Counted from the first letter of the stretch, positions 3,001 through 26,584 are shown. The stretch is 35,376 nucleotides of DNA from Phyllosticta citribraziliensis (GCF_038025025.1 NW_027117356.1:1-35376); one strand, 5' to 3'. Notes: generated by a model not told the origin, from the sequence alone. Numbers and translations: made by a program.

Positions 3001-3982
3001 TTTCTATAGTAATTATAGGTAGCACAGTTAGACTTAGACTACTTAGTAGACTACTAACTAGTATAAATAGTAAGAGCTATAGTACTATTCTTACTAGTAT
3101 ATTTAATCTTATTAGTTATAGTATAGAAGAGATCCTTAAACTTAGGTATCTCCTTCTTATTATACTAATTTATATACTAAGTTATATACTAGATAGGAAT
3201 ATTATCCTATAAGTTTTTTAAGAGTAGAATATAAAGAATCTAGTCCTTAACTTACTATTAGATATAGCTAATATAGGCTTACCTTTATTTATATAGGGTA
3301 TTATAGAATTCCTTTACTATTATAAAATTACTATATTAATAGAAGATAAAGTCCTTAATAATATTAGCCTTAGAGAGGATACTCTTAGTATTATATATAT
3401 TATAAAGCTTCTACTATATAGAGTAAGCTAAACTAGTATGCCCCTATAGTGCTATTATAATAGGAAGTATAATAATTATTATAAACTAGTAGATAATATA
3501 TATATCCTTCTTATAATTAGTAGTATTTTTTAGCTTATCCTTAAGTAGATAGGTATAATAGAATAGACTAAGCCTTATCTTAACTATTATCTTAAAGGTT
3601 ACCTAGTTAGTAGGGCCTTTAAGTAGCTAGATGTTCTTTAAAGAGATACTAAACTTGCTATTATTTATAATTAGGTCTACCTCTTCTTTAGCCTTAGCCT
3701 GCTTAGCTAGTATAGAAGATGAGGCGGTAGTAAAGCCTAAACTACTAGATAATAAGGGAGAAAGGGAAGGTAAAGTTATAGTAAAGGTAATAACTATTAG
3801 TATATTACTTAGAGTTATAGAGATAGATAATACTAATAAATTTACTAAAGAGTAGGAATTATATAAGATAATAAGGGATAAAATAATAAAATAATAAAAT
3901 AACTATTAGTAATAATTATATAGATGGTATTATAGTATAATACTAAAATAAGCTAGATAAGTAATTTATATATATAATATAA

Positions 3983-3994
3983 GGGCTTATAACC
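3983..3994 (-). promoter_or_regulatory. Primer-binding site for the anticodon-arm half of initiator tRNA-Met
   Basis: Minus strand reads ...TATCA|GGTTATAAGCCC. This is one RIP G>A change from GGTTATGAGCCC, which is complementary to the tRNA-iMet anticodon arm (copia/Ty5-style priming). Confidence 0.8.
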
Positions 3995-4261
3995 TGATAA
4001 AGTAAGATGAGAGAACTAAAGACTCTATTTAAGGCTACTCTAAGAGCTATCTATATACTGCTAAAACTGCTAGGGGGAGTAGTAGCTGGTGTTAACTACT
4101 AATAAGTCCTGAACTTATTGAGATATGTAAAGCTAATAGATAAGTGTATCTTGACTAAAGTAGTGAGTTATTATCTGGATAAGCTGTAGTTATCTAGGTG
4201 AACTGCAGCTAAGACGACGCGACGGGAGACTGCTTGGTGTTGTTATACAGGACCACCAACA
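3995..4261 (-). repeat. Putative 5' LTR of the copia element (~267 bp, TGTTG...TATCA on minus strand)
   Basis: The inner boundary is fixed by CA directly abutting the PBS at 3994. The outer boundary is inferred from CAACA at 4257-4261 and the end of the AT-rich composition. The second LTR is outside the window, so the outer end cannot be confirmed. Confidence 0.6.
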
Positions 4262-5042
4262 AGGGCCAAGGCTATTCGATTGGCCTGTTTCATATTCCAA
4301 GAGAACATAATCGGCTCGCCGACCGATTGGCAAAACGAGCTGCCAGGAATGATCAAGGCGAATGAGTTGACGTTGTTGGTTCATGTGACTGCAGATAGCA
4401 GGAAGGCAGGTGGTAGGGAAGCTTCCGAACGGCTTTTGATTGTTCTGCCAGTCTCTTCTGCAGTCACTTGAGAGAGCAACACCCATTGTCCGGACAGATT
4501 TTGCTCTAACTTTTATCAGTCGACTCATTGGGTTTTAGTCCACTCGAGATCTGGCAAATTTCAAAGAGCGAAACCCAACACTGGACAGAGTAGAAGAGAG
4601 CGCGGTATCAAATGAAAGCAATTTGAAGTTCTGATTTTTTCGTGCTGCAGGACCTTGGAAGTGCTTCTTTATGAAGATTCGGTGTAATGGGCCGCAGATC
4701 GCTCCGGAGCCACCAGACTGGTGCCGCTGAGCTGCTCGAACTCTCCAGATCTTCCACTTCCAACGACGTGTTTCCCGCGGAATCTGTTGTCAGACAACCA
4801 CGGCTGGCAGCCGAATCTGACATGGACGCGGACGCGGAGGCATGTCCTTGGCAAGAGTCACCCAAAACCCAATCTTGCCGTCTGCTCGATCTACTGCATC
4901 ACTCCCCGCTTCTCCCCAACGCTTAATCACTGCGTCTCCCATCTTCTTCGTCCGCAGACACATTTCGACGCGCCCACGCTCAATGCGGCTGGAGGACGAC
5001 AACAATCCAAGCATCAAAACCCTGGTGACCAACCCACAGGCC

Positions 5043-5506
5043 ATGGCTTCAACGACCAACGCGAACGGGCCCTTCCGGGCGAGCTGCAAAACAAAATCTT
5101 CCAGTACTTAGACGGACGTTCTCGTCTGTTCCTTGGAGCCACGAATCACTACTTCCGCCGCGTAGCTGACCTGACGAGGGACGAGAAGATCACCTTACTC
5201 TTCTCCGGCGAGCGCCCCAATGCAGTCTATGGCTGCACCATGTGCTTTCGACTGAAGCCATACGAGGACTTCGGGATCGCTCAAGTTACCAAAAAGCGTG
5301 GCCAGGGCCAGGTGGAAATGAGAAAAAGTTTTTGTCTCGAATGCGGGCGCTCAGAACGAATATATAAGCCTGGGACCGTGGTGAAAACATTTCTCGATGA
5401 ATAATGTATTGGTAAGCCGAAATCTGCTTTTGTTTGTGGCACTCCTACCAAGGTGCTGACCTGAATAGACGACATTTTCTTCGTCATTGGACACGGGCGG
5501 CTGTAG
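5043..5506 (+). pseudogene. F-box/zinc-finger paralog 1, frameshifted and with a premature stop
   Basis: ATG 5043 reads MASTTNANGPF (paralogs: NKNGLF, KNGHF) but is out of frame with LPGELQNKIFQYLD..FLGATNHYFRR..CTMC..CLEC, consistent with a ~10-nt deletion near 5072. The long ORF starting at 4721 has no ATG before the F-box. TAA at 5402-5404 precedes an intron at 5412-5468 (GTAAGC..GCTGAC..TAG) that lies in the same position as the intron of paralog 7. Confidence 0.75.
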
Positions 5507-5532
5507 TACTTACCAGGTATACGCCCAGTTTT

Positions 5533-5790
5533 TGATACTCGAACATCTTCATTCGATTCTATCAACGTCAACCTTCTTGGACCTGGTATCAGAGCATGAA
5601 GCTGCATCCCGATACGGCGATGTCCGCTCACTTAGGTTTCTACCCCTGCAGCTTCCGCTCCTCAAGCTTTGAGTTACTCTGACCAGTGCGTGAAGCTGAA
5701 TGCGTCAATGCCCAAACGCCCGATGGCGATGAATACCCGCGCAGCTTAAGATCTCCACTCCTCCCGCTGTCGTTCACGTTTCAAGCGTCC
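5533..5790 (+). promoter_or_regulatory. Conserved upstream block of F-box paralog 2
   Basis: CGTCAACCTTCTTGG at 5566-5580 is identical to the reverse complement of 14220-14234. Bases ~5708-5770 (TGCCCAAACGCCCGATGGCGATG..GCTTAAGATCTCCACT) align with the reverse complement of ~14135-14195. Confidence 0.55.
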
Positions 5791-5877
5791 CTCAGTTTAT
5801 TACTTCTAGCTCTCCATTTCCACCTCTCAGTGCGAAAAACAGCCGCATCACTACCAAGTGGCAAACAACTACTCATC

Positions 5878-6327
5878 ATGTCTGTGGCCGTCAACAAGAA
5901 CGGTCTCTTCGCGAAACTGCCCGGGGAGCTTCAGAACCGCATATTTTCCTATCTGGACTATCCATCTGCCATCTTCCTCGCAAGGACAAATCAATACTTC
6001 CGACGCGTCGTCAGACTTTCGACGACCCCAACAAACGCGGAGAGACTTGCAATTGTCCAGATCCTCGAGCTGAGTTTCGGAAGCTTTCTCTTTAGGTTGT
6101 TCGCTTGCACCACGTGTTTTCGACTGAAACCTCGCGAGGAATTCGGCGTGGCGCAAATAAAGAAGCACGGAAAAGGCACTCCAGAGAATCCGCGATCTTG
6201 CCATCGATTTTGCCTCGATTGTGGCATCGACGAGGGATATTACGGCGCTGACGGCGCCTCCAGGGAAGTGAAGGTTTTTGAAGAGTACAACAATCCGCGT
6301 AGGTTACAGTATCACTTCTGCTTGTAA
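5878..6327 (+). CDS. F-box/zinc-finger protein, paralog 2 (149 aa as read; C-terminus uncertain)
   Basis: MSVAVNKNGLFAKLPGELQNRIFSYLDYPSAIFLARTNQYFRR is an F-box, followed by CTTCFRLKPREEFGVAQ..CHRFCLDCG. The stop overlaps GTAAGC, and a shifted frame continues CKP.. to 6511 (paralog 6 has CRCKP), so a frameshift or short intron is possible. Confidence 0.8.
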   Translation: MSVAVNKNGLFAKLPGELQNRIFSYLDYPSAIFLARTNQYFRRVVRLSTTPTNAERLAIVQILELSFGSFLFRLFACTTCFRLKPREEFGVAQIKKHGKGTPENPRSCHRFCLDCGIDEGYYGADGASREVKVFEEYNNPRRLQYHFCL

Positions 6328-7982
6328 GCCCCACCTGCTAATGAGCACGTCTAGAGAAACAACATTTAGTCGAGTATGTGAGAGGGGAGCGGTACCTGTT
6401 GGCCCGTCAAAGCGCACCAAAGCCAATTTGATCGTACCACCAACGGTATCATCGTGTGAAACCGTCGAGGTTTTTCCAATTGGGATCACGCCATTACGTC
6501 CGAAGGACTAATGATGCGAATGTCATTCTGCCAACCTCCCTCGAGAAGCTTGGTCAGCGGGTATTTGGATCAATTTTTCCTCAGCTTACCGTAGAAGGAC
6601 TGTGCGAGAATTCAGGATGATGCTAGTTGAGCCGAACAGGTCAACTCAATCTCCCACATAGTTTCTTGACTGATAACGAATCTGCCAACCTCAACCTGCG
6701 CGGAACGAGCAGAACTCACGACTGTCGCCATAAAAACATATGCCCATGCGCGGGTGGAGTTCTACATTCCGTGCAGAATTCTCTACTACCGCAATTTCGT
6801 CAAAAAGCACCACCAAAAACGAGAAAGACAACCCACGACCCAGCACTCCAAAATCCACCAGCCCAAACAGCAGCAACGCCTTTCCCTCGACGCGCTTGAT
6901 TCGCCATGCATGCTCATCCCACCGGGCCCTCTGCTTCTCCACTTCCCCCACATAAAACGCGATCGATCGCTGATCACCGGGTAAACACTCCGCCGCCCCC
7001 TGCCAGCCAGACTGCCAGACTGCCTGGCGCATAAACATGCAGGCAAGCCGTGACGAAACGCGCAAACCGGGTGATCGACGCCCTGGATGTCTGCGTGCCG
7101 TTTCCCTGCACAGGAACTGTGGTACCGAGCGGCCGTGAAGAAGGGGCGCAGAAACGTGGATCCCGGGTTTGAATTTATGGTGGTTGGGTTGCTTTGCCTG
7201 TCTTGATCGACTGTGCGTACGCACGCATGAAGAGCTGGGTCTTAATTGACGAGATATTCGTGACCAGGCGGTTTGAGACGAGTTGGATGGTTCAGCGTTG
7301 CTGTTGGTCGGTACCCGCATTCTCCTCCACCACCTCCACCTCCTCTTCCTCAACTGCAACTCACAACCCACCATCTTGCCCTTCCATTCCTTTCTCACCT
7401 GCACAGCGCCCTTGTACACAATCCCCGTCCCATCCCGCCCCGTTCTCTGCATCCCCCGCACGCCGCACCCCACATTGCGCACTCCGTACGGGTAAACACT
7501 CATCAGGCACGCCCCAGATCGCCCGCACATGCCGGAACAGGCAGCGTAAGCGAGGCGCAGGACCCAACGGGCGCGCGCCCTAGACAGGGAACGTGTAAAT
7601 TGTGGCGCTGAGGTTGTTTGGACGACATGTCGTTGATGAAGTGGATGAGATGGGTTGAAGGGGGTGGATTTGGGTTGTTTTTGAAGAGAGGATGTGGGGG
7701 AATTATGGATTATCGTTGTTGGGGTGGGGGTATCTAGATGTCTGTCTACTTCTACTTTATGCTGCGTGGTGGCGCGTGTTTTGCGCCGCCGTTTTGCGGC
7801 CGCCTCTGCTCTGCTTGCTTCCCTTCTCTTCAATTGCGTCTGCCATGCACAGACAAGTCAGAATGTGTGCCATGCGATGCGATGCAAAGCCCATCCAAGA
7901 AAATGCTTATCCACGTCATTCAACCAGCAAGCCGAAAGATTCCAAACGCCAAAGAAACATCATCACGAATCGTGCCCTCTCT

Positions 7983-9799
7983 TCATCCCTCACAGGGATA
8001 CTGGCTCTTACTCCGCAGATGCGAGCCCCAGCGCATAAAGCACCACGGGATAACCGCCATAGCGACCGTGACGAAGCCCAGCAAACTCGTCGCCCAGCCC
8101 GTCCCCAAGTTCTCATACATCTGCAGGATGAAAAGCGGGAACACGGCGCCGAGGATGTATCGTAGTAGAGAGCAAGCCGCCATGGCGCTGGCACCGTACT
8201 GAGGGCCGTACGTGTTCATCAGATATGCGGTGCACGCCATGAAGATGAGCAGGTTGGCCGTGCCGAACAGCGCCTCGCCGATGATGGGCACGATCCAATG
8301 CACGCGGTACTGTGCCGTCCAGCCGAAGAGGAAGAGCGCGATGGGCAGCATCACGGTTCCGGGGTAGGCGATGTAGAGCGTGAATTCGGGCGGCGGGTTA
8401 TAGCCTGTCCGGAGTGGTTGTGCGTGCGCGGACTCGACAACACCGGATTCGAGGGCGCGTGGGTCGGCGGGCGCGTCGACTTGCGTTGATGAGGTGCGGT
8501 TGCTGGCGTTTTGCAGTGCGGCCTGCTGCTCTTGCTGGGCGCGCCAGCGGGCGACGCGCGGCTTGTCGAAGAGGATGCTATTCGCGGTGATGGTTGTGAA
8601 GCCAATGAGGCAGCCGGCGGCGAGACCGAGGAACGTGAGACCTTGGGAACCAAGAGAGAAGCCGTAGAATGTTTCGAAGACGTAGGCCGACGACTCGAAG
8701 AAGGCGTATTGAACGCCGAAGATGAAGGCGACGTAGAGACTGAAAAGGCCGATGATGGGCTCGGTAAAGAGCATGTGGACGGGACGACCAAGGGTGTTCA
8801 TAAGCACGACTTGGATTCCTTGCGCTGCTTTCGAGGCGCGCGAAGCCGCGGTTTCGGTGCGTTGTAGTTCTGCACCGCGGCCCTGTTGTTTCTTTGCACG
8901 AGTCTTTAGAATCTGCTTCTTGTACGTCTCGCTCATGAAGAACGCGGGCGTCAAGAAGGCAACGACGAAGAAAAGAATGACCCATTGCGTCCACCGCCAG
9001 TCTTTTCCTTCGACAACAAAACCTCCGAGCAGAGGCCTGTCTTGGTCAGCAGAAGCGCAAGACAAATATGGATGATGCTTACCCAAAAGCAGGTCCCAGG
9101 AATGGCCCGCATACAATCAACGCTGTTGGCACTGCACGTTCATGGGGTGCCCAAACATCGGATATGCTGCCGTTTCCTACACTGAGTGCAGGGCTACCAA
9201 AGCAGCCAGCAAAGAAACGACAGACAATCAAAGCAGTCATGCTTTGTGAGAATCCGGCACCCAGCGTGAAGAGTGCAAAAATAGGGGTACATGCAAAATA
9301 CACTGCGCGCCGACCAAAGTTTTCGCTGCACGGTGAAGCAATAAGAGGTCCAAATGCGAGTCCGAGGGTATAAAAGGAGAAAGGTAGGATGGCCACGGTC
9401 GAAGAGACGCCAAACTCGTTCATGACTTGGGTGCGACCAGGCGTGTATATGGAGGAGGACAGGGTGCTGCTTCGTGTCAGTCGGCTCCCTCCATCGACTG
9501 TGCATCGACGTACGTGATAAAAGCAATGCTTGCTACTTCTTGTCAGCACAGGTCGATTAGGATAGATGAGAATGTAGAGTCCTACTTGGGATGAACGTAT
9601 GGAGACATCTTTTGGCAAATGTCCAGTTGTGCGGGTTGGCAGGGTCGTCGGCCCAGTCAATCTTTTCGAGCACCATATTGTCCTCGATGTTGTCGTCTTC
9701 ATGGGGTCCAAGGTCCCCGGGGTCCGGAAGACTTGCCTGGGGAGCTGAGCCATTATCAGGAGTGGGCTCGCGAAGACTGGTACGCTTTTCGTCATCCAT
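7983..9799 (-). CDS. MFS drug:H+ antiporter (DHA1 family, TPO1/FLR1-like)
   Basis: Motifs DW.DDP.NP.NW, GLAFGPLIASPCSENFGRR, CRFFAGCFGS, GPFLGP..GP, WRWTQW, RPVHMLFTEPI, PPEF.L and YGASAMA..LRY are present. Introns lie at ~9533-9585, 9467-9513 and 9037-9082, with a 19-nt microexon at 9514-9532; splicing keeps the frame. Confidence 0.93.
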
Positions 9800-10932
9800 A
9801 GCCTGGAACCGCGCTAGGAAATAAAAAGTTGCAACGCTGGAAACCACCAAGGATCATCAGGGTCGCGCCGTCATTAAGTATACCAGTTTCTTCAGCGGTC
9901 AGCCAGGCCCAGGTTGCCACTTTTGCAAAGGCGCAGCTTGAGCAGCGCGGCCCAAGGTCCACTCTCCAGGCATGCGAGCAACAGACGGGGCAACTTGTAT
10001 CGCACGGGACGCTGCATTTTGGACGTAGGGCTCCCGGGTTCAGGGATTTCATGCCAGTTCGGACCAGCGATGGTGTTTTCAAGCGTCGGGAGCCAATCAA
10101 TTTTTTCCTTCTGTTTGCAGCTCGTTTCGCGTATCTACATGTTGTGCTGGACTTGGCCGTAGCTCGACCCACCGTCACGCCAGTCGGGCTTCGGGAACGA
10201 AACACGGGAAGTAGAGGTGATTGACCAAAGCACGCAAGTCCGGAGGCCCGCCGCCGCGAAGTTGGAGGAAATTTCGGTCGCAGGTCAAAGGCTGTCAACT
10301 TGACATCACTGCCAGACTGGCTTGCAGTCCCTCCCTCGTCGTCGTTTCGATGATTGCTCCGTGGAAATGGGCTCGCGGAATAGCACCGTCAACGTCTCTC
10401 GCGTCTCTTATCGTCCAGGGTGCTGACGTGCTGCAGCATTTCCGCGCCGCAGTGGATGTCGGTGTTCGAGCGGCTGCAAGGAGAGACAGAAAGCCGATGT
10501 CGCAGGCGACGGGGGTTTGTTGACTTGGTCATGTTGGAGATGTTGCAGTTTTGGACTCGTCGGGAGCGCAAACAGGCAGTTGATGATTGCCGCAGGGATC
10601 GGCAGAGCCTGGCCGGCCCGATGCCGCCCGGCTGCCGGGGACGGCAGTCAACACCACAACACCATCATGACGACTGCACTGTGTACATGTACAACCGTCA
10701 GATTGATTTTCGCTCGGCTGATTCTGGTAGTAAACATCACTGGCTGAAACCTCTTCATCCCAGATATCATGGTCCAAGACAAACACCGCTGACGTCACCA
10801 ATCCAAAAGCGGCAAACGAGCGAAAAACAATGAATTTTCGAGAGCGGTCGCAAGCACTTTGCTTCGCTCGACCTCTACAATCTTCCTACTTGATATTCCC
10901 TCTCTTTTCCTTCTTCTGTCTATCTCAGCCTT

Positions 10933-11188
10933 TCAATCTGATTCCAGAACGTTCTCCGCGTTCCCTGAGAAATCCACCTCTTGAGCCGCGGCATCCCAAG
11001 GCAACCTAACCTGCGAAAGAGATTCGCTAGACAATGAAATCTTCCCCAAAGAGAAAAGAGTGATGAAACCCATGGTTAAGACACTCCCGTCGCCGGCGCG
11101 CCGGCATTAAGGCCGCTTGACACTCGCGGCAGAGCTCTCCAGGCAGTGCGTCAATCTGGCCGTTCTTCTCTTCTGCTGCTCCTCTCAT
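10933..11188 (-). pseudogene. Degenerate, internally deleted F-box paralog 3
   Basis: ATG 11188 reads MRGAAEEKNGQIDALPGELCREC.. (53 aa, stop ~11027). A neighbouring frame ends ..LPWDAAAQEVDFSGNAENVLESD* at 10933, resembling the tails of paralog 6 (LTWDDHEDQERF..YDSD) and paralog 5 (GESD*). Confidence 0.6.
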
Positions 11189-11189
11189 A

Positions 11190-11335
11190 AACAAACTTGC
11201 AGGTTCTGCAGTCGCGGTTCATCACACCGCGGGAAGTGGCTGGCAAGAGATCCAGGTACTTGGACTTTTCGTTTTGAAGTTCGCCGGGATAGCATAGATC
11301 CGTTCGTTCTTCTCATTCGCTGTTTTCGAAGGCAT
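11190..11335 (-). pseudogene. Degenerate frameshifted F-box paralog 4
   Basis: ATG 11335 reads MPSKTANEKN, followed by a GAAC duplication and a frameshift. The shifted frame PGELQNEKSKYLDLLPATSRGVMNRDCR aligns without gaps to PGELQNRIFSYLDYPSAIFLARTNQYFR. Confidence 0.7.
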
Positions 11336-11618
11336 GGCTGATGGAGAGCATGGAAAATAGCGATGTCGTCGTTGGAAGCGTGTTGGGAAATGGAAGTGTT
11401 GCTGAGGGAGGAGGGGGAGATGTTTCTCGGAATGACAGGCTCCCGTTGAGTGATTGTGACAAAGGCAAACCACCACATTATCGAGCGATTGTTGTAGCAG
11501 TAGGGTCTACTCAACGTCTTGGTCGTAGCTTGGAGTGACTTTCGAATTCTCCGTCGTCTGCGTTGAATAAATACGTCGATTGCGAGTGCGGTATTTGCTC
11601 ATCGAGGCGGTGGTCATT

Positions 11619-12296
11619 TTAGTCTGATTCGCCTCGGGCTATGCCTTTGCTGCTAGCCCAAGACTTCTCGTCTTCTTCCCTGAGCATTTCCCACTCATTG
11701 TATTTGACGTCTCGACAGAATTGATCCAAACCAAATTCGTGCCATGGCCCAAAATCATCGCATTGGTCCACTTCGTCTACATTGCACGGTCCGAGCTCGT
11801 CGCATACGCCACAGTTTGGATGACAGCGTCCGTTTCGCTTGCAGTACGCACACTTTTGGCATCTTTGGCAGAACGCTCCCTCCGTGGTCGTAGAACCGCA
11901 GCAAAAAATCCACTCATCTCCATATGTGCACATTTCAGCCATGTCTTCGGGAGAGTATGCCCCGGTCTTCATACCACAGTCGACACAGAACTGTAAGCGT
12001 GTTTTCATAGGTGCATCCCTCCTCAGGAAAAGGACAACTTTGCTCTGAAATTCCCAAGCTGGTTTCATTTGGAAGCATATGATGCAGCCGTACATGGGCG
12101 GCTTTTCACGATTCTTAGGTAGGCCCCCAAGAGAAACCAGAAATTCGATTCTCTCCTCTTTCATGAGGTCGGCGATGCGGTGGAAGTAGTGGTTCGTGGC
12201 CGCGAGAAAAATGGAAGAGCGCTCGTCGAGGTATCCGATGATCATGTTGTGCAGTTCGGGAGGCAGCCGATCGAAATGGCCATTTTTGGCCGCCAT
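11619..12296 (-). CDS. F-box/Cys-rich protein, paralog 5 (225 aa)
   Basis: MAAKNGHFDRLPPELHNMIIGYLDERSSIFLAATNHYFHR, then CIIC..CVDC, an extra Cys cluster CC..CQRCQKCAYC..CHPNCGVC, and an acidic tail. Confidence 0.88.
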   Translation of the reverse strand: MAAKNGHFDRLPPELHNMIIGYLDERSSIFLAATNHYFHRIADLMKEERIEFLVSLGGLPKNREKPPMYGCIICFQMKPAWEFQSKVVLFLRRDAPMKTRLQFCVDCGMKTGAYSPEDMAEMCTYGDEWIFCCGSTTTEGAFCQRCQKCAYCKRNGRCHPNCGVCDELGPCNVDEVDQCDDFGPWHEFGLDQFCRDVKYNEWEMLREEDEKSWASSKGIARGESD

Positions 12297-12489
12297 GGCC
12301 AAGAGACTGCAAAGCCAGATGTTGCAGTCTCGCGTTCGCAGTGTGGAACTCTTATGAGTGTTCGCAGTTGTTCGTGTGAAGTGTCCACTGTTGGCAAGTG
12401 TCGAAGGAAGGCTCCGAGCGAGATGTAGTATGTTGCGGGAGCTCGCGGATTTTTATGTAGAAGCCGCATTGACACGGCCGGATTGAGAA

Positions 12490-12570
12490 TCATCAAGAGG
12501 GTTGACCAAAAGTTTGGCAGACGTGGCTTGGCTAGTTTCTCGAGTATCCAAATGGTCGGGAGCCAATCGC
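12490..12570 (-). promoter_or_regulatory. Conserved upstream block of paralog 5 (contains CCAAT on the + strand)
   Basis: 12539-12570 CTCGAGTATCCAAATGGTCGGGAGCCAATCGC matches 14271-14302 at 29/32 positions. Confidence 0.55.
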
Positions 12571-13133
12571 AGGCGTGAGAACGGGGATCCAGGAGCGAAA
12601 CCTTAAGTGGCCAGGGCGCTGGACCGGGCAACGCAGGTGAACACATGGGTCATTGGAAGATGCAGCGGGCGATGAAGCGTTAAAGTGCTTCAAGGGTAGG
12701 GAGTTCCCAGTCAAATCAAGGTTGCGGATGCTCTATTGTCGAGAGGGACAGCCACAGTGTCCAAGTGGCGATGATTCATCTTCGGATTCAAAGGTCTAGA
12801 GCAAAATTCAGCGAAAGAGTGCGATTGTTTCACCAGCCGCGCAAGTTGTAAAGTCAAAGCGTGGCAAGATCTTTGATAGTCGAGGCTTTAAAAGTAACTA
12901 CGCCACGTGTACATCACCAGTCATTCGCTCCCTTATTTGCAAGCAGTGCGTGAATTCTGAACAATCTTTCCTTTCTTAGGCGCTTGACTCCGAAAGAATG
13001 GCCTGGGCCTGCGGAAAGTGGCAAGATAATCATCCGCGGTGTTGTGGACGAGAAGGATCGTTGAGGAAGGAGTAGACAGCGGTTTGAAAGGCGAGATCCT
13101 CGCTGGAACAAGGGCAAGCAAATTGAACGGTCC

Positions 13134-14045
13134 TCAAAAAAGCGATGACATGTCGCTGTCGTAGCCATGGTCAACCGATCTCCTGAAACGTTCCTGGTCT
13201 TCGTGATCGTCCCACGTCAAGACCGGAGCCTCAGAAGTTTCGGCTCTTCTGGAAGGGCCTTCCGCATTTCTGGCACGTAGAGAACGAGGGTCCGGGTATT
13301 TGTCGCATTTACAGCACATTTGCCCCCATGTCCCCCTTTGGCGAACACCCCATTTTCCACAGAACTCGCAGAGAGAGCAAACCTCACATCGTGGCCCACG
13401 TTGTAGTGGTTTGCAGCGGCACCGCCACCAATAGAAATCTTGCCGTTTTCCGTCCATGCCTCTTATCTTGACTTGGGCCCCTGGCGGGTATTTTTCTCCT
13501 TTCAGGGCGCATTCGATGCAGAGACGTAGGTGTGCTTCGGAATGGCCCTTGGAGCGCTTCTTCATGACGTACGTCTCCCCGAATTCAGGACAATCCTTCA
13601 ATCGAAGGCACGAGGAGCAGGCGTATCTGTAAGCATTTTCCTTACGTTTCTCGAGATAGAGGAGGAATTCAAGCTTCTCGGTGTCTGTAGGTGGCGACGA
13701 AACTTTGACGACTCGTCGGAAATGTCGGTTCGTCCTAGCCAGGAGGACAGCGGACAGGTAGTCCAGATTTTCGAAGATTTGGTTCTGGAGTTCGCCAGGC
13801 AGCTTGCTGAAGAGATCTTCCCCTCCATTCCCGTCTAAGCTTTGAAGAGCATTGGCGGGGACGTTTCTCAAGTGGAATTCGGTCGGTGATTGGGTCGGTG
13901 AATAACTTGAAAAAGTGAGTACCGTTCTCGGTACTGAAATCGCAAGTGACCTGGTTTGGGCTGGCGGAATAATCTTGCTAGGCTCGATTCTCGAGTGGGA
14001 TTGTGGCCTTGGAGGGTATATATGATTTCTCCTTGCTAGAGACAT
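13134..14045 (-). CDS. F-box/Cys-rich protein, paralog 6 (303 aa)
   Basis: N-terminal extension, then LFSKLPGELQNQIFENLDYLSAVLLARTNRHFRR, CSSC..CIEC, and CRC..CEVCSLCEFC..CCKC. Confidence 0.9.
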   Translation of the reverse strand: MSLARRNHIYPPRPQSHSRIEPSKIIPPAQTRSLAISVPRTVLTFSSYSPTQSPTEFHLRNVPANALQSLDGNGGEDLFSKLPGELQNQIFENLDYLSAVLLARTNRHFRRVVKVSSPPTDTEKLEFLLYLEKRKENAYRYACSSCLRLKDCPEFGETYVMKKRSKGHSEAHLRLCIECALKGEKYPPGAQVKIRGMDGKRQDFYWWRCRCKPLQRGPRCEVCSLCEFCGKWGVRQRGTWGQMCCKCDKYPDPRSLRARNAEGPSRRAETSEAPVLTWDDHEDQERFRRSVDHGYDSDMSSLF

Positions 14046-14134
14046 GTTTCTTCAAGGAATATCGATAGGAAAGAGTGGTTAATCGCGTTGGGTGTAACGT
14101 ATTTGCAGGTTGGAAGAATGAAGTAAAATCAGCA

Positions 14135-14302
14135 GCGTAGGCAGCGGAGAACTTAAGCCACACAAGTACAAGTCACCAGTTGGGCTTTTGGGCAGTGATG
14201 CATCCAGGGCGCTGATAAACCAAGAAGGTTGACGTCCACATAGAGTTCGAAGACGAGATTGGGCGAGGTGCTCGAGTAACCAAATGGACGGAAGCCAATC
14301 GC
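14135..14302 (-). promoter_or_regulatory. Conserved upstream block of paralog 6
   Basis: Shares segments with 12490-12570 and, inverted, with 5533-5790. Confidence 0.55.
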
Positions 14303-14947
14303 GACAACCGGAACTGCAAACGACCAGCGGAACTTCAACCTTCTGATCGCTTGCACGCACGAGGTGGTAAGCGATTCGACACGCACCCTCGCGATGTCTC
14401 ACCTGCACGTCTTGTCTTGTCCGCGGTGAATCGTGCGGTCTGAGACCGCTCTTGTATGGTCCAGGCTTCCCCAACCTCGCGCATTTGCTCGCTTTGTTAG
14501 TTGACCACGAATTACAAATTGTGAGAAGAATCAGTATCAGTGCAATTCCGATGCCGTCTCCGACCGATGAAGGGTGGACGTCGCCCCGAGAAAACATGCA
14601 TGACTGAAGAAACAAGAACAGGAAATAGAAACAAGATCTGTCGGAAGGAAAGCGCCAACGAAATCCAGTCCAGCATCAAAGTACACGTAGCAATGAACAA
14701 CGCCCGCGAAAGGCCTGCCTTTGCTGGCTTCGGGGCCAATCCAACATCCCAAGCCACTGTGGTGTTGTCATTTCGTTTTCTCGCCTCCCTCCAGCATGCT
14801 GTTCAAGGTCATGAGGGAGGCCCTCTGCCCTGCCACAAAGCATTTCACGCCGCTCATCGCGAAGTCGTAGTCGTGTGCAACCCGTCGTCAATCTGGTCAG
14901 CAGAAAGTCATGTTGTCGAACTGAGAGACGTTGATGGGCGGTGGTGT

Positions 14948-15667
14948 TTACGCAGGGATGATCTGATAATCATCGAAGTCCGAGGGAGGAGGCGGTGCAG
15001 GCGGTGGGCAAGACAGCGAGAACCCGCGCCGTTTGCAGTACTCTTTAGACCAGTCAATCGCGGAGCCTGGTTCGTAAGGCACAGCGAACTTGACGCCATC
15101 TACGCATAGCGCCGTTAGCCAGACATTCATTCTCTTCAAGAGCACAGTCCATCCACATCAAATCTCATAGCAGCAGCATCATCCCGCCACAAACTTACCA
15201 ATCACAACCCCATCCACAAAATACGCCCTCACACTATTGCCCCCCGTGTAAATCCTCCGCGCCACCCCACAGCGAATGCAAAACCGCCGCGCCGCCTCCG
15301 CGCCGCCGTGGTCGCGCTTCTTGAACGTCTGCGCGCACCCGAAGCCTTCGAGCGGCAGCAGCCGCACGCACAGCGTGCAGCCGTACATGTTCCCGCGCTC
15401 GACAGACAGCAGCAGCGCCACTCTGTCTTTTTGCGAGACGCTGATGATGTGCTGGTAGTAGTGGTTTGTGGCGCCGAGGTGCATGCGGGAGCAAGTGGTG
15501 AGGTGGCTGATGATGAGGTTTTGTAGTTCGCCGGGGAGGGCGCCGATGAGGCCGTTGGGGTTGGCGTTGGCGTTGTTATGCGGTGGTGTTGAGGTGATGT
15601 TGGCTTTGCTGTTCTTGACGCCGTCTGCCGGTTTGGCTCTCTTGCGACTGCGTTTGCCGCGTGCCAT
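14948..15667 (-). CDS. F-box/zinc-finger protein, paralog 7 (two exons, ~206 aa)
   Basis: Basic NLS-like start MARGKRSRKRAK, then NGLIGALPGELQNLIISHL..LGATNHYY and CTLC..CIRC. The intron at 15100-15198 (GTAAGT..GCTAAC..TAG) joins in frame to DGVKFAVPY..PPPAPPPPSDFDDYQIIPA*. Confidence 0.87.
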
Positions 15668-16719
15668 TGTGCGGGGCTTAAAGGATGCTCTGTAGTTGGT
15701 CCGTCGCCGTGTACTTGCACTCGATATCCGACATCTCCAAGCTTTGATCACTTTGTTCCAATGAGCGTGGGGAGTCGAAGCCGTTTGTAGTAGTGGTTTG
15801 TCGCGGCGAGGGCCAACGCAGCCGGAGAGTCGAGGTGCGCGAGAATCCGAGAGAAGAGCTCCCACAGCAGCGCGCCTCAAGCGCCGTTCTTGTCGCCGAG
15901 CACGGCGAAGCGGTTGCAGTCGTAGCCGAAAACACGAACTATATCCTCCGGCGCTGGCAGGCTGTGCGAAAAGGGACGGGCTTTGAAGGCGTCATGGAAC
16001 AAAGGTAGGTGGAACGGGGAGATAAAGTCTTGTCGCCGTCTCTGAAGTCACCTCACCGTAGCAACGGGCGCACGAGTTGCCAGGAGATGTCGAGTAGCTC
16101 GGCATTCACCCAAGCATGGAAAGGCCGTGCGACTTCTGCGTGTATCGATGGATGATGAATGATGGATGCTCTAGAGACAACTGGGTGAATGTTAGCAGAG
16201 TGTCGTGCCGCACCGTACGCAAAAAGTGCAGGAGAAGCACGGATGGCTGGACGTGATGGACGACATACTTACCACACGCTTTTCTGACTCTCCTCACCAC
16301 CACACTTGCACACTGCACGGCCCCAGCAGTGCAACAAGACCAACCATCTCCCATCTCCCACCAATCCCCAATCCCCTATCACCAGTCCCTCAAAGACAAA
16401 AACGACAACAAGAGAGCGCAAAATTTGTGATAAAGGATGGGCAGGCATATGAAACCCCCACCCATCCAAATTTCGATTTTTTCCATTCTATAACATTTTT
16501 TTCCCGATTTTCCCGTCCCCGACATCTTCTTTTGTACTTTTTGCAAAAAACACGTTGTTCCATCCATCCAACGCCGCCAAACCGCCAGAAGGAGATAAAG
16601 AGATGAAGAGATGAGAGTTAAGGAGACAGTGAAATATGAAATAGGAAAGGAAACACCAGCAAGTCCATCTCTTCGTCCCTCGTCCTTTCCCACATCTCAT
16701 CTTTTCCAATTTGCGTGAA

Positions 16720-16846
16720 TTCTTTTTCTTTTTGTCTTTTTCTTTTTGTCTTTTTCTTTGTGGTTTGCGATTGCGGTCGTGGATGGGTAGACGGGCAAGC
16801 AAGCCCAACGACCGACCGACCAATCAATCAATCAATCAATCAATAA
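16720..16846. repeat. Low-complexity T-rich tract and (ACCG)n/(CAAT)6 microsatellite
   Basis: TTTTTC/TTTTTGTC repeats at ~16720-16760 and CAAT x6 at 16821-16844. Confidence 0.8.
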
Positions 16847-18017
16847 ACCGATGGTGGTGCGATCGATTATTGCGGTGCCCCTTTTCGCCGTGCCGCCGCG
16901 TTGCGTTGCGTCGCGTCCGAATACGCTGTCGACTGGCGTCTGCGCTGCCGAGCGGACAAGACAAGACAAGAGGAGAAGCAGCCGTGAGCGTGCGGAGACA
17001 GACGGTCGTGCGGTCGATGATCGCTTGCGCCGTTTGCAGCTCTCGTCCGCCAGCCGGCAGAGACAAGGTGGAAAGGTGGAAAAGGAAAGGGGACAAAGCA
17101 AAGACGGTAACAGGGGGAGTAAATAAAAGATGAATGCCGCGCTGATTCCTTCAGCCGGCGGCAAGATGGATCGAGCTGTTGCAACAGTAGTGAAAAGGTT
17201 GGTGAAGGAAAAGACATGATGACTTGCTCCGTCGTGGCTCGACCTCGAACTGAGACCGAGACCGACGTGGTTCTCGTCAGTCGTGGACATTTCGGGTTGG
17301 AAAACGATGCGAGCCTTGAGCTTCCTGACACCTGTCGCGTGGTCTCAAGGACAAAAATGAGAAAAAGTCCGTTCGTCTTGCAGTCGGGCAGCATCCCAAA
17401 CAGGGAACAGTCAGAGTCTCGTCGTGGAAAATCCCAGTCAGTGCACACTCATGTGTGGAGTCTCCATCCGTTCTCCCACCTCGTCTCATTCCCGGCGGAT
17501 CCAAAAGCGGGCAGGCAAAGCAGGAGAGTCGGCACGAATGCTCCTCAGCTGCTCTCCTCCCGTGCAAAATCGGTTTCGTGACAACAACAGCGGCGACAGC
17601 CGTGACAACAAACAAGACCGACGACCGCATCCGCCCATCCACGGTCATCGCTTGAGAGAGACCACAGAGATATAAAGGCGTCCAGGTGCAATGTCCAGAC
17701 TTCTGTGGTCTCCCTCCGTCCAATCGTGGCAAAGGTCGTCCAGAACAGGGCGACGCGAGTCTGTACGCCTTGCTTTTTTCATACAACAGCCGTGATTCTT
17801 TTTCCTTCCTTTCAAATCGAAATCGTTTCAAACTTCCATCGGCTCGAGCTCCCTTGGAACAAATCTGTCGGCGAGACGGGCTCGTATCTCTCTCTTGGTT
17901 TTGAATGGCTTAATGAGGCCTTCATGCGAAGGCGGAACAACAAAAAAAGGAAAACGTCGAGCGTCCATGTCCCTGGTCAGGTGGACTGAACGATCGTGTC
18001 AAACATGCGTCAATGTC

Positions 18018-21000
18018 CTACAAGTAGAACATGGAGTCCTTCAGCCTGTCGTGGACGCCGCCACGCCAGTGCCTCCTCGGATCGTACTGCATGTTCGTGT
18101 TTTCCTTGAGGAAGGAATGCAGGTAAGAGCGACCGCGTTCGCAAACCAAGTCGGCGTAGTACGCCGGCGGGCAAACGGAGACGGCTCTGGTTGCGCGGCC
18201 GTACACGTAACACAGGTTGTGCGTGATGCGCTGAAGCTGGTCCGCTCCCAGCTTGTTTTCATCGCGCAGGCAAATGTAGTGCGCAGGGCGCGACGTACCC
18301 TGCAGACCGGCGTGGGCGACGAGGAAGAAGTCGAACAGGCGCTCGCCAGTGATGCCGCGGTCGACAACGGTACCGGGCCTGACGTTCATGGCGCGACCTT
18401 CTGCGTCTTCAGGCTTCGCGGGGTAGAAGCGCGTGTGTCCGCGCTTGGTGCAGATGATCAAGCTGGACTTGGGGTAGTTCTTCTCGGCGCCGTAAAGCTG
18501 CTTGTATGCCTCGACAAAGCTGGGCCATTCCTCGCGAAGGACAACAGGGAATTGCCCCTCGGAGACACCATCACGGTAGATGATGACCTTGTTGGGCAGT
18601 GTATTGTTGTTGCGCGCGCGCCACAGCTTGAAGCGCTCCATGATCATTTCTGTGAGGTCGCTTCTGTCGACCATCTCCTGGCGAGCCGTCTGCGTGCGAA
18701 TCGACGCCGGGTAGTTGTTGAAGTTTGCGTCGACTGATCCGACGACACCAGTGATGGAAGGACCACCGGTGGCGCTGCCGGGCGGCGGGTGCGAAACGTC
18801 AATGCCGATGAGGATTGTCTTGTTGTCCAGAGGAGCAAGCTGCTGGATCCGCATGTCGTGGTTGACACCACCGCACTTCAGGTTGAACTTCAGGCCCACG
18901 TTGGCCATGTATTGCGGTTGGCCCTTGGGATTCATAATCTTTCTGCTGATGCTGCAGACAGTGCCGATACCGTACTTGACATCCCCCATGAATTTGATCG
19001 TGTCGTAAAGCATGGTGTTGTCCGAAGGCAGCAGGACAAGCAGCATACCGATGCGGTTTTGCACCATCTGCTTCATTTTCGACTCAACAAGTTCCGTAAT
19101 CTCCGACTGATTATACGGAAAACTGATCTGGATCTTTGCTGGAGGGGTCGGGTTGCCCATGCGAACGCCGTACGATTTGAGAGCGTCCCCGAACGTCTTG
19201 ACCAAGTTCAACGCCTGGTCCTGACTCTGGAATGTTGACCGGTTCTTTTCCTCGACGACAAGGCATCCCCAAGTCGGAATTGTCGCGGGCTTTGAGTACT
19301 GAACTCTCGCAAGGTTCCACTTGCCATCATTCGGCACCTGTGTCTTGCCTGCATACTGCAACTGAGGTACGGGCAGGATGCGGGCCTGGACGGTGAGCAT
19401 GCTACCGCCGATTTGGACGCCAAAGGCACCGAGCGTGGGGTTGTTCCCACGCACTTGCATCACATCAAGGCCAGACTGTGTGATGCTGTTGGCATTGGCG
19501 TTGGGAGGACGAGCCGCAAACTCAATCATGAGACGAGTCTGGTTGCTCGTGAGCATCCTGCCTGCAACTTGACCGGGCAGGACACTGCAAAGCTCTGCCG
19601 GGATCCACGTCGGATGGTCTCTGGTGCCAACGTTGACGACAGGTGCAGTTGGAGTCTTAAGCGTGATGGAGTATGTCTTGGCAAAGTACTCTGCGACAGA
19701 GATCGGCGTCGGCTTGCCATTGCTGGAGCTGCCACTACTGCTGCCGTTGGGGTCGTCGAACAGAAACTTGACCTGTTGCGCAGAAGCGCCGTGGCCCCAG
19801 GTCATGAGAGGATCGTTGTTGGCGCGGGCAAGACCGCAAAGGGTCTTGACTTTCCTGATGCGGCGGCCACTTCCATCTCTGGCCGTCATGTAATTGGTTT
19901 CAACACGCAGCAACCTGATGAAAGAGTCCAAGCGCATCATGTGCTGGGGACTGCGGTTGGTAGGGCCGAGGTAGTCCTGCATGAGCTCAAGCAAACTTCC
20001 GGCTTTGTAGAACGCGGCCGTCGAGACGTTGATGTTGACCAAAAGACGGCTGATGCTGGTCCTAGCACTGGCAAAGTATCCGCGGAGAGCCTGAAGACCT
20101 TCGCTCAAGTTGTGTCGCTCGGCATGTCGGTTTCCGTTGATAGGAAAGTACTTGTTCTGTCCAACAGCTGCCATATCGTGCGCAGTTTGGGGAGCCTTGG
20201 ACAAGATGATGTTGAGGGCCTGGATGGCTTCCTCCTTCAGGGGATATTGAACTCCCATGTTGTCGGACTTGAGGGAGTTCAACAGCTCCGGCAGAGAGAC
20301 AGTTCCCAGCTCCTCGACAAGGACTGTCTTGGTGTTCTTCATCCGAGCCCTTTCGCGCGCTTCCGACTCTTCTTGTCCTTCCACCCTGTCGGGAATCGGC
20401 TCGCCATCCGCAGGATACCATTGTACTTGAAAAGCGCGGCGGTTGTGGGGGCCCTCTGCAAGCGTGACCTTCTTGTTCGTAATCACAATCTGCGAGTAAT
20501 CGGTCGCACAAATGGCGCTACTCCAGACCGGGTCGTCGAGAAGAATTTCCAGGATTCGCCTCTTCTTTCTCTTCTGTTGCTCTTCGGGCTGGATCGAGAC
20601 GGCGTATCGGTAGATGTCCGGAGCGTTTTTGAGCGAAAGGGGAAAGTAGTTGGTGTAAACTGTGGTTTCCCTACCCATGGTACCGTAGTCCGGTCTCCTG
20701 GCCAACTGGTCCTCAAGACCCAAGGAGGACACCGCACCAACCAAGCTCTTGACAACTTGGTTCTCCGTTTTGGTCACGATTGGGTCCGGCTGGGGAATCT
20801 GCGACGGGTTGCCAAAGATGGCCGCAGGGGTGGATTGAGCTCTGGGTCCATGGGGACCGCCGCGATGCGGAGAGGTTCCACGAGAGGACGAGCCCCTGCC
20901 AGTGGAGCCGCTTGAAGAATCGCCAAAGGGCCTGCGTCCCCTGAACGAGCCACCACGACTGCCAGAGCCCGATCCCGAGCTGCTGTCGCCGCGACCACCT

Positions 21001-21050
21001 CCGCCACCTCTTCCGCGTCCACCACCACGACCGCCCCTTGGTGCAGACAT
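18018..21050 (-). CDS. qde-2: Argonaute, QDE-2-like (1010 aa, single uninterrupted ORF)
   Basis: RGG-rich N-terminus; N domain (RPDYGTMGR..YTNYF); L1 (GLQALRGYFASAR..LLVNIN); PAZ (ISVAEYF..WIPAELC); MID (QYMANVGLKFNLKCGGVNH); PIWI (GIDVSHP, RQEMV, YRDGVSEGQF, HTRFYP, QGTSRPAHY, PPAYYADLVCER) ending in SMFYL. Confidence 0.97.
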   Translation of the reverse strand: MSAPRGGRGGGRGRGGGGGRGDSSSGSGSGSRGGSFRGRRPFGDSSSGSTGRGSSSRGTSPHRGGPHGPRAQSTPAAIFGNPSQIPQPDPIVTKTENQVVKSLVGAVSSLGLEDQLARRPDYGTMGRETTVYTNYFPLSLKNAPDIYRYAVSIQPEEQQKRKKRRILEILLDDPVWSSAICATDYSQIVITNKKVTLAEGPHNRRAFQVQWYPADGEPIPDRVEGQEESEARERARMKNTKTVLVEELGTVSLPELLNSLKSDNMGVQYPLKEEAIQALNIILSKAPQTAHDMAAVGQNKYFPINGNRHAERHNLSEGLQALRGYFASARTSISRLLVNINVSTAAFYKAGSLLELMQDYLGPTNRSPQHMMRLDSFIRLLRVETNYMTARDGSGRRIRKVKTLCGLARANNDPLMTWGHGASAQQVKFLFDDPNGSSSGSSSNGKPTPISVAEYFAKTYSITLKTPTAPVVNVGTRDHPTWIPAELCSVLPGQVAGRMLTSNQTRLMIEFAARPPNANANSITQSGLDVMQVRGNNPTLGAFGVQIGGSMLTVQARILPVPQLQYAGKTQVPNDGKWNLARVQYSKPATIPTWGCLVVEEKNRSTFQSQDQALNLVKTFGDALKSYGVRMGNPTPPAKIQISFPYNQSEITELVESKMKQMVQNRIGMLLVLLPSDNTMLYDTIKFMGDVKYGIGTVCSISRKIMNPKGQPQYMANVGLKFNLKCGGVNHDMRIQQLAPLDNKTILIGIDVSHPPPGSATGGPSITGVVGSVDANFNNYPASIRTQTARQEMVDRSDLTEMIMERFKLWRARNNNTLPNKVIIYRDGVSEGQFPVVLREEWPSFVEAYKQLYGAEKNYPKSSLIICTKRGHTRFYPAKPEDAEGRAMNVRPGTVVDRGITGERLFDFFLVAHAGLQGTSRPAHYICLRDENKLGADQLQRITHNLCYVYGRATRAVSVCPPAYYADLVCERGRSYLHSFLKENTNMQYDPRRHWRGGVHDRLKDSMFYL

Positions 21051-26200: not shown

Positions 26201-26584
26201 AGAGGAAGGCGAGGAATAGTAAACAATGCTCAACGAAACAGCGGAAGAACAAGAAAAAGAAATCGGGGTTGTAAATGTTGGAATTTCAGATGCGCAAACG
26301 GTTGGCAAAAGGGAATTCACCGAGGACGTGGACGACGTAGAAGAAAATGCCTGTCCGGAGGAGAGAATTGCAGCATATACCGTCTGCGTAGTCGTGAAGA
26401 CTTCACTCTGGCATGTTTCTTCGACGTTGCCCACCTCCCCACGTGATTGGACTGCTGGTAGTCGGTTCAAAGGGTACATACTTGCGGCCTTTTGTCCGGG
26501 AGCGAGCGGGTGTCCCTCTGTACAGCCCTCCCACAGGGAGACTGCCAGGGAAAAAAGGAAAATTCGAGAAAGTACAGGAGCCAT
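23230..26584 (-). CDS. Secreted GH81 endo-1,3(4)-beta-glucanase with a long Ser/Thr-rich N-terminal region
   Basis: Signal peptide; motifs [74 protein letters not shown] and GIHMLP. Introns at ~24231-24281, 24023-24080, 23884-23955, 23735-23813 and 23501-23562. Confidence 0.95.

Follow-up and report, generated by a model that had tools for sequence, protein, structure and literature searches.

A genus-conserved cluster of F-box/zinc-finger genes beside a QDE-2-like Argonaute in Phyllosticta

F-box proteins dock on Skp1 in SCF (Skp1-cullin-F-box) ubiquitin ligases, and polerovirus P0 is an F-box protein that destabilises Argonaute. To our knowledge, the control of Argonaute levels in filamentous fungi has not been worked out. 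Arabidopsis FBW2 is another F-box protein that destabilises Argonaute (PMC2914764). Schizosaccharomyces pombe Stc1 links Ago1 to the Cul4-CLRC complex; in passages of Bayne et al. (2010; PMC2875855) its LIM-like fingers are required for Ago1 association, with C83 and C93 as core zinc ligands and K100 and R116 needed for that association, and passages citing He et al. (2013) say that the fingers bind Ago1 directly and that the Cul4 complex is recruited via a disordered tail. Here we describe a stretch of 35,376 nt from the citrus-associated fungus Phyllosticta citribraziliensis (the window, meaning the whole of the DNA analysed) in which five paralogous genes, p1 to p5, encode an F-box followed by a zinc finger. 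The cluster is a genus-conserved set of F-box/zinc-finger genes beside a QDE-2-like Argonaute gene. The reading that we prefer, at a probability of roughly 0.6, is that the cluster arose by local duplication and encodes ordinary substrate receptors of SCF ligases, and that the adjacency to Argonaute is coincidental and reflects inherited gene order.

The five paralogs span ~4.7 to 15.7 kb. They and the Argonaute gene are as follows:

4688..5404, plus strand: p1, F-box and first zinc finger (CTMCFRLKPYEDFGIAQ...CLEC) in an open frame; tblastn to p5, E 1.16e-30
5878..6431, plus strand: p2, F-box and zinc-finger gene; exons 5878-6298 and 6355-6431
11619..12296, minus strand: p3, F-box gene with the first zinc finger plus a second Cys-rich cluster; ATG at 12296
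13134..14045, minus strand: p4, full-length, 303 aa, F-box, C4 finger and second Cys cluster
14948..15667, minus strand: p5, F-box and zinc-finger gene with an intron at 15100-15198; 206 aa spliced
18018..21050, minus strand: QDE-2-like Argonaute, 1010 aa; Pfam and PDB matches

When each paralog was searched against the window with tblastn, the matched stretches were 4988-5401(+) for p1, 5890-6324(+) for p2, 11622-12302(-) for p3, 13137-13850(-) for p4 and 15182-15700(-) for p5, and the mutual matches among the five had E-values of 9e-15 to 1.65e-32 at 29-48% identity. In the alignment of the five (A1) the four finger cysteines and the F are invariant, and the invariant block reads L-P-x-E-L...N-x-I...L...S...L..TN, then C-x2-C...F...C-x2-C. 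The original prediction, a note made from the window's sequence, had proposed five paralogs of this make-up, and all five were recovered by tblastn and alignment, with both of its quoted strings (CTMCFRLKPYEDFGIAQ and CTTCFRLKPREEFGVAQ) found in the window. Its further details of the array also held: the motif K or Q is substituted in three copies (Q to V in p3, Q to Y in p4, K to L in p5), the array ends ~2.3 kb from the Argonaute stop codon (2351 nt, measured to the ATG of p5), and the five copies on the Argonaute strand correspond to three full copies and two fragments. The ligands of the p4 C4 finger are C78, C81, C111 and C114 (numbering of a 238-aa piece). The second Cys cluster is present in p3 and p4; p1, p2 and p5 end after the first finger.

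We searched a profile of the five paralogs against 1.84 billion representatives of clusters at 50% identity and obtained 1060 representatives at E≤1e-3, 355 of them at E≤1e-10, with matches covering both F-box and finger. Named members come from Phyllosticta spp., Talaromyces marneffei, Paecilomyces variotii, Cercophora, Usnea and Apiospora, and the sole labels that family members carry are 'hypothetical' or 'F-box domain-containing'. No Pfam model was found for the zinc module in the window paralogs or in 116 aligned members, and no account of an F-box joined to this zinc module turned up in a literature search for surveys of F-box families with zinc fingers in fungi. The family is a widespread, uncharacterised F-box plus zinc-module architecture in Pezizomycotina. 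Across the 116-member alignment the four finger cysteines are present in every sequence, the F in 114 and an R before the second CxxC in 112, while at the position of the motif K 47 members have K, 33 have L and 30 have R, and the motif Q is found in 77. The second cluster, C-terminal to the first finger, has the form C-x-C...C-x2-C-x2-C-x2-C...C, each cysteine occurring in 82-111 of the 116. Among the best 150 representatives, 21 (P0021, P0035, P0048 and others) hold two to three F-box/zinc-finger units in a single predicted protein, being either genuine multi-unit proteins or fused models of tandem paralogs, from which it appears that tandem copies, or models fused from them, are common in other fungi. 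A metagenome scan with the five-paralog alignment gave a single locus (L001) with an F-box only, the matches in the ESM Atlas were all F-box clusters of the family itself, scoring ≤0.79, and no Botryosphaeriaceae member was among the 3 and 9 proteins reached by word-indexed homolog searches.

That the paralogs carry an F-box, as originally predicted, is supported by agreement between profile matches and a predicted three-helix fold. The Pfam F-box model scores p4 at 25.8 bits against a cut-off of 20.5 and p2 at 20.3 bits, with p1 and p3 lower; p1 also matches Pfam F-box-like at E 0.003, under the cut-off, and p5 has no Pfam F-box match. In the wider family, at E≤1, F-box (PF00646) matches 95 and F-box-like (PF12937) 86 of the 116 members. 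Searched against PDB sequences, the family profile found FBXO4 (1.9e-4) and also FBXW7, FBXO31, Skp2 and Cdc4. An AlphaFold2 model of p4 made with the family alignment has a predicted local distance difference test score (pLDDT) above 90 over residues 10-130, and when this model was compared with 48,161 PDB chains using VIA-align, F-boxes solved with Skp1, aligned on residues 10-54, were the top rows: AnkB (Z 5.7, root-mean-square deviation (rmsd) 1.9 over 45 residues), FBXW7 (Z 5.2) and FBXL2 (Z 5.0).

The paralogs are like the SCF F-box receptors (PF00646/PF12937; FBXO4, FBXW7, Skp2, Cdc4) in their predicted N-terminal three-helix F-box and its LPxEL...I...L pattern. They are unlike them in that the putative substrate part is not a WD40, LRR or Kelch domain but a small Cys-rich zinc module lacking a Pfam model, and in their length of only ~160-300 aa. 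Alternatively, the proteins may not be SCF receptors at all, the F-box-like helices and the finger forming one unit for some other use, such as nucleic-acid binding or a non-cullin Skp1 complex. Such a use would fit the F-box, linker and first finger being predicted to fold as one block at pLDDT above 90, as well as the fact that most window copies score below the Pfam F-box cut-offs and that PHD fingers, ribosomal zinc ribbons and the nuclease Hpy99I are among the weak fold neighbours of the zinc module. However, the pattern LPxEL...I...L...L..TN..F is nearly invariant in the family and the profile matches are true Skp1-bound F-boxes, and we regard a non-SCF role as unlikely.

By sequence and predicted fold, each protein comprises an N-terminal F-box, which would dock on Skp1, a linker helix and a compact C4 zinc finger packed against both, with the full-length members p3 and p4 adding the second cysteine cluster. 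Most probably the proteins are interchangeable substrate receptors of SCF ligases; the zinc module would bind the target, and different paralogs would recognise different targets.

The history of the cluster points to local duplication. The p4 ortholog of P. citrichinensis (P0001) shares 74% identity with p4 across 100% of its length, and the p2 ortholog is 64% identical over 130 tree columns. In the family tree all 11 Phyllosticta rows fall in one part, with ortholog pairs of p4 with P0001 (support 99) and of p2 with P0003/P0298 (98), and the tree required 4 label changes compared with 10.6 in shuffles, none of 500 shuffles being as low. Since the Phyllosticta rows group together and contain cross-species ortholog pairs, the cluster arose by local duplication before these species split.

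A further possibility is that the array is decaying duplicate DNA beside a repeat-rich flank, without current function. In keeping with this, p1 has no in-frame ATG before its F-box, two F-box relics lie among the paralogs and a flank carrying the marks of repeat-induced point mutation (RIP) adjoins them. The ATG at 5043, which had been taken as the start of the array, lies in another frame and opens a 22-codon open reading frame (ORF). This ORF (5043-5111) starts MASTTNANG..., like the N-termini of p2 and p3, is likely to hold the ancestral start of p1 and is out of frame with the p1 F-box (open frame 4688-5404). Because there is no in-frame ATG and the frame at 5043 resembles those N-termini, p1 looks frameshifted at its 5′ end and is probably a 5′-frameshifted pseudogene. 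However, p2, p4 and p5 have open frames, with orthologs for p4 (74%) and p2 (64%), spliced RNA-derived contigs cover all three, and the zinc ligands are invariant. Decay is unlikely for p2, p4 and p5, and as an account of the whole array we find it very improbable.

The cluster is transcribed, spliced contigs covering p4, p5 and Argonaute and a contig covering p2 up to an exon border. These are Logan contigs from runs X1 and X3; the species label of X1 is that of the best match, and no listed run is recorded as RNA, but both were treated as RNA-derived because their contigs carry canonical intron joints. The X1 contigs skip 15100-15198 and 16181-16272, and a further joint, in the MFS transporter gene, lies at 9035/9082; each skipped piece is bounded by CT..AC, equal to GT..AG introns on the minus strand. 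The p5 intron (joint 15099/15199) reads GTAAGT..TAG on the minus strand, and the intron at 16181-16272, in the spacer between Argonaute and p5 (joint 16180/16273), reads GTAAGT..CAG. Spliced at the observed joint, p5 is identical to P0153 (206 aa), and the spliced translation of p2 is identical to the NCBI model P0005 (165 aa), both models being proteins of P. citribraziliensis. One X1 contig of 8104 nt runs from 12887 to past 21100 and spans p4, p5 and Argonaute, which is not proof of a single transcript; another, 5694-6298, covers p2 and stops at the exon border. In run X4, from a related organism ~90-93% alike, there are contigs over Argonaute, p3, p4 and part of p2, and a contig from related organism B covers 10874-12209 (p3) with 97 other letters. 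There is little or no cover of p3 and most of p1 in X1 and X3, and X6 (organism C) covers 16757-20946 only, neither of which says anything on expression or presence.

The neighbouring gene had been called a QDE-2-type Argonaute; that it is an Argonaute is confirmed, and it may belong to the QDE-2 rather than the SMS-2 clade. Piwi (8.3e-80), ArgoN, ArgoL1, ArgoL2 and PAZ score above their Pfam cut-offs and ArgoMid falls just under (22 compared with 27.5 bits); all six domains, N, L1, PAZ, L2, MID and PIWI, were found. Its PDB matches include human AGO1 (5.3e-103), with full-length matches to human AGO1-4, and the MID-PIWI part of Neurospora crassa QDE-2 (2yhb, 9.7e-89), and one homolog is labelled Qde2 by its source. 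The Argonaute is 97% identical to that of P. citrichinensis and 88-97% identical across Phyllosticta species.

To assess linkage, GenBank protein accessions were taken to follow gene order; in P. citribraziliensis the order Argonaute ...062, p5 ...064, p2 ...067 matches the map. The Argonaute accessions and those of nearby family members are:

P. citribraziliensis: Argonaute KAK8179062; family KAK8179064 (p5), KAK8179067 (p2)
P. citrichinensis, assembly 1: Argonaute KAK8169311; family KAK8169312, KAK8169316
P. citrichinensis, assembly 2: Argonaute KAK8170825; family KAK8170828, KAK8170832
P. citriasiana, assembly 1: Argonaute KAK7524884; family KAK7524883
P. citriasiana, assembly 2: Argonaute KAK7515286; family KAK7515285
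P. citricarpa: Argonaute KAK7546333; family KAK7546332, KAK7546330
P. paracitricarpa: Argonaute KAK8217685; family KAK8217686, KAK8217688

The P. citrichinensis p4 ortholog and Argonaute are each on a contig of 2,952,579 bases. The proposed linkage to Argonaute is therefore kept in these five species, but it does not extend to every family member, as the P. capitalensis member P0009 lies at least 634 accessions from any listed Argonaute of that species. Moreover, because the Phyllosticta Argonautes are 88-97% identical, the shared order represents one inherited arrangement and not independent evidence.

The likeness of the first finger to Stc1 was the other ground for linking the cluster to Argonaute, and this idea is weakly supported. 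At E≤1 the Pfam Stc1 model (PF12898) matched none of the five window paralogs and 5 of the 116 family members, all below the cut-off of 24.8 bits; at E≤0.02 it matched 2 of 132 sequences, P0011 and P0098. The P0011 match (E 0.0013, 19.7 bits) places residues 74-111 on profile positions 46-83 of 84, and the matched stretch, C-x2-C-x3-K-x4-F-S-x2-Q...R-F-C, has the spacing that the original prediction gave for the Stc1 finger; P0098 scores 16.1 bits on positions 50-72. An Stc1 chain was not among the PDB sequence matches of A1, the family alignment (A3) or P0011 at E≤10. Foldseek comparison of the post-F-box domain with the PDB, which had been proposed as a check, gave nothing significant, neither the p4 model nor a model of its zinc module having a match at E≤0.001, and the ESM Atlas likewise offered nothing in favour of an Stc1 likeness. 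Of the 48,161 PDB chains, 12 reached Z≥2 against a model comprising only the zinc module of p4 (pLDDT 79.1). One of these was Stc1 (2luy), at rank 11 of 12, with Z 2.0, an rmsd of 1.7 Å over 39 residues and 18% identity; model residues 6-53 align on chain residues 88-126, in the second Stc1 finger. The other 11 chains (ribosomal zinc ribbons, ZZ, PHD and the finger of the nuclease Hpy99I) had Z 2-3 and rmsd 2.2-6.7 Å. Two independent weak signals, from profile and predicted structure, thus weakly suggest the same half of the Stc1 domain, which we take as a lead and not as membership. The tandem two-finger architecture of Stc1 was not matched, as profile and structure matches cover one finger only, and the first finger may be distantly related to finger two of the Stc1/LIM-like tandem.

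In summary of this comparison, the family resembles S. pombe Stc1 in its C-x2-C-x3-K-x4-F-x3-Q...R-x-C-x2-C finger, sub-threshold on profile positions 46-83, and in the predicted superposition of the window finger on 2luy 88-126. It is unlike Stc1 in that Stc1 has no F-box and recruits Cul4 via its disordered tail and not through Skp1, and in that the family's second Cys cluster, C-terminal to the matched finger, has no match to Stc1.

Several observations weigh against regarding the cluster as ordinary receptors placed beside Argonaute by chance. Four of the five window paralogs are under the Pfam F-box cut-offs, and family members lie 1-5 accessions from Argonaute in five Phyllosticta species. 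In addition, the lowest rmsd among the listed chains belongs to an Argonaute-binding domain, that of Stc1 in 2luy. From the aligned ranges we infer that the start offset of that superposition (model residue 6 on chain residue 88) would put C11, the first cysteine of the family's finger, over C93 and the motif lysine (K18) over K100; the near-invariant R would then lie within 1-2 residues of R116.

The model of the original prediction proposes that SCF adaptors with a Stc1-like finger bind the neighbouring Argonaute or its cargo; they would regulate its turnover or connect it with a cullin ligase in the way that Stc1 links Ago1 to Cul4-CLRC. The sub-threshold Stc1 matches in 5 of 116 members, the presence of 2luy in the small set of chains at Z≥2, the need for LIM-like fingers in Ago1 association in those passages of PMC2875855, the adjacency kept across the five species and the single X1 contig through p4, p5 and Argonaute are all consistent with it. 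However, no window paralog matches Stc1 and no member reaches the cut-off, the Z of 2.0 is tied with those of ribosomal zinc ribbons, ZZ and PHD fingers, and the family profile misses Stc1 at E≤10. Three of the five copies have another residue in place of the motif K or Q, and K occupies its position in 47 of 116 members, with L and R making up 33 and 30. The 1060 clusters cannot all adjoin the one to three Argonautes of a genome, P. capitalensis P0009 lies far from Argonaute, and synteny among congeners is not independent. We consider this model quite unlikely. A dedicated Argonaute partnership is less likely because the family is so large, and the repeat-adjacent, relic-bearing setting points the same way. 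The notion of a diversifying genome-defence module found no direct support, the family being far larger than a partnership with Argonaute needs.

As ordinary receptors, the paralogs would owe their position beside Argonaute to gene order inherited within Phyllosticta. Argonaute lies where a conserved block (GH81, Utp14) meets a variable stretch that ends in a RIP-mutated repeat; the variable flank is marked by its RIP indices, by relic fragments and by an intervening transporter gene. As far as the sequence goes, the tie of the cluster to RNA silencing appears to be one of position only.

The stakes of the alternative are nevertheless worth stating. It is improbable, in our judgement, that the zinc module represents a divergent form of the Argonaute-binding Stc1-type finger, joined to an F-box, and that the Phyllosticta set tags Argonaute or its riders for ubiquitylation. 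Were this true, the set would play in a fungus the part of plant FBW2 and viral P0, using the same finger with which S. pombe couples Ago1 to a cullin ligase, and the family would join RNA silencing to SCF ligases across Pezizomycotina. The likeness to FBW2 and P0 lies in the proposed logic only, an F-box adaptor acting on Argonaute; no sequence kinship to the window paralogs is expected, and the likeness is conceptual. Literature searches combining F-box, Argonaute, QDE-2 and fungus found no fungal F-box/Argonaute case, and those on the Stc1 domain/PF12898 led to a paper on Mucor and found nothing joining that domain with an F-box. If the finger is not of this kind, the family still defines a widespread uncharacterised F-box plus zinc-module architecture, and the cluster is an ordinary lineage-specific expansion of adaptor genes.

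The remaining features in and around the cluster are as follows:

1..4000, no strand: AT-rich RIP-mutated repeat flank bordering the cluster; GC ~0.25
7481..10505, minus strand: major facilitator superfamily (MFS) transporter gene; Pfam MFS_1 2.6e-18 and 2.2e-8 on two ORF pieces
11205..11288, minus strand: degenerate F-box scrap (YPGELQNEKSKYLD); tblastn E 0.14-0.2, alone not significant
15778..15900, minus strand: relic with an F-box only, upstream of p5; tblastn E 1e-5 to 3.5e-7
16181..18017, minus strand: transcribed spacer, Argonaute to p5, with spliced intron 16181-16272
24278..26584, minus strand: GH81 glucanase on the other side of Argonaute; Pfam Glyco_hydro_81 3.8e-113

The AT-rich block at 1-4000 borders the cluster, and its RIP signatures are strong: TpA/ApT is 1.79 and (CpA+TpG)/(ApC+GpT) is 0.07 there, compared with 0.53 and 1.23 in 4001-21100. 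The MFS gene (~7.5-10.5 kb), which splits the paralog array, is spanned by a spliced X1 contig. In the relic at 15778-15900 a stop codon stands just upstream of the matched stretch and the frame terminates in a stop. Past Argonaute lie GH81, Utp14 and another glycosidase. An Rfam scan of the window gave no matches.

Two observations concern Argonautes outside Phyllosticta. A Venturia inaequalis gene model of 1632 aa (P0270) fuses Argonaute and GH81 domains, which indicates that the Argonaute-GH81 side is conserved much more widely; Argonaute-GH81 adjacency is probably conserved across Dothideomycetes. Filed under Quercus suber are a member of the family and an Argonaute of fungal type with 39% identity to that of the window (P0100, P0258); these entries are probably fungal DNA in the oak assembly.

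The spacer between Argonaute and p5 is covered over 16455-17924 by an X3 contig of 1516 nt at depth 181, with adapter letters at both ends, whereas X3 depth over most of Argonaute is ~1-12, with 42 in the bin overlapping the spacer contig. ORFs in this spacer had no Pfam match, and the contig may represent a distinct, abundant transcript that is non-coding or encodes a small protein. The NCBI accession number KAK8179063 also falls between those of Argonaute and p5. As the spacer intron lies ~500 nt upstream of the p5 ATG, either p5 has a long intron-bearing 5′ untranslated region or another transcript is present there.

Within the p4 F-box core, a stretch of 35 nt (13771-13805) is matched by contigs of X1, X3 and X4 that then continue into unrelated sequence, and beyond it the flanking letters are the same in X1, X3 and X4. 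This suggests that another locus shares the F-box-coding stretch of p4.

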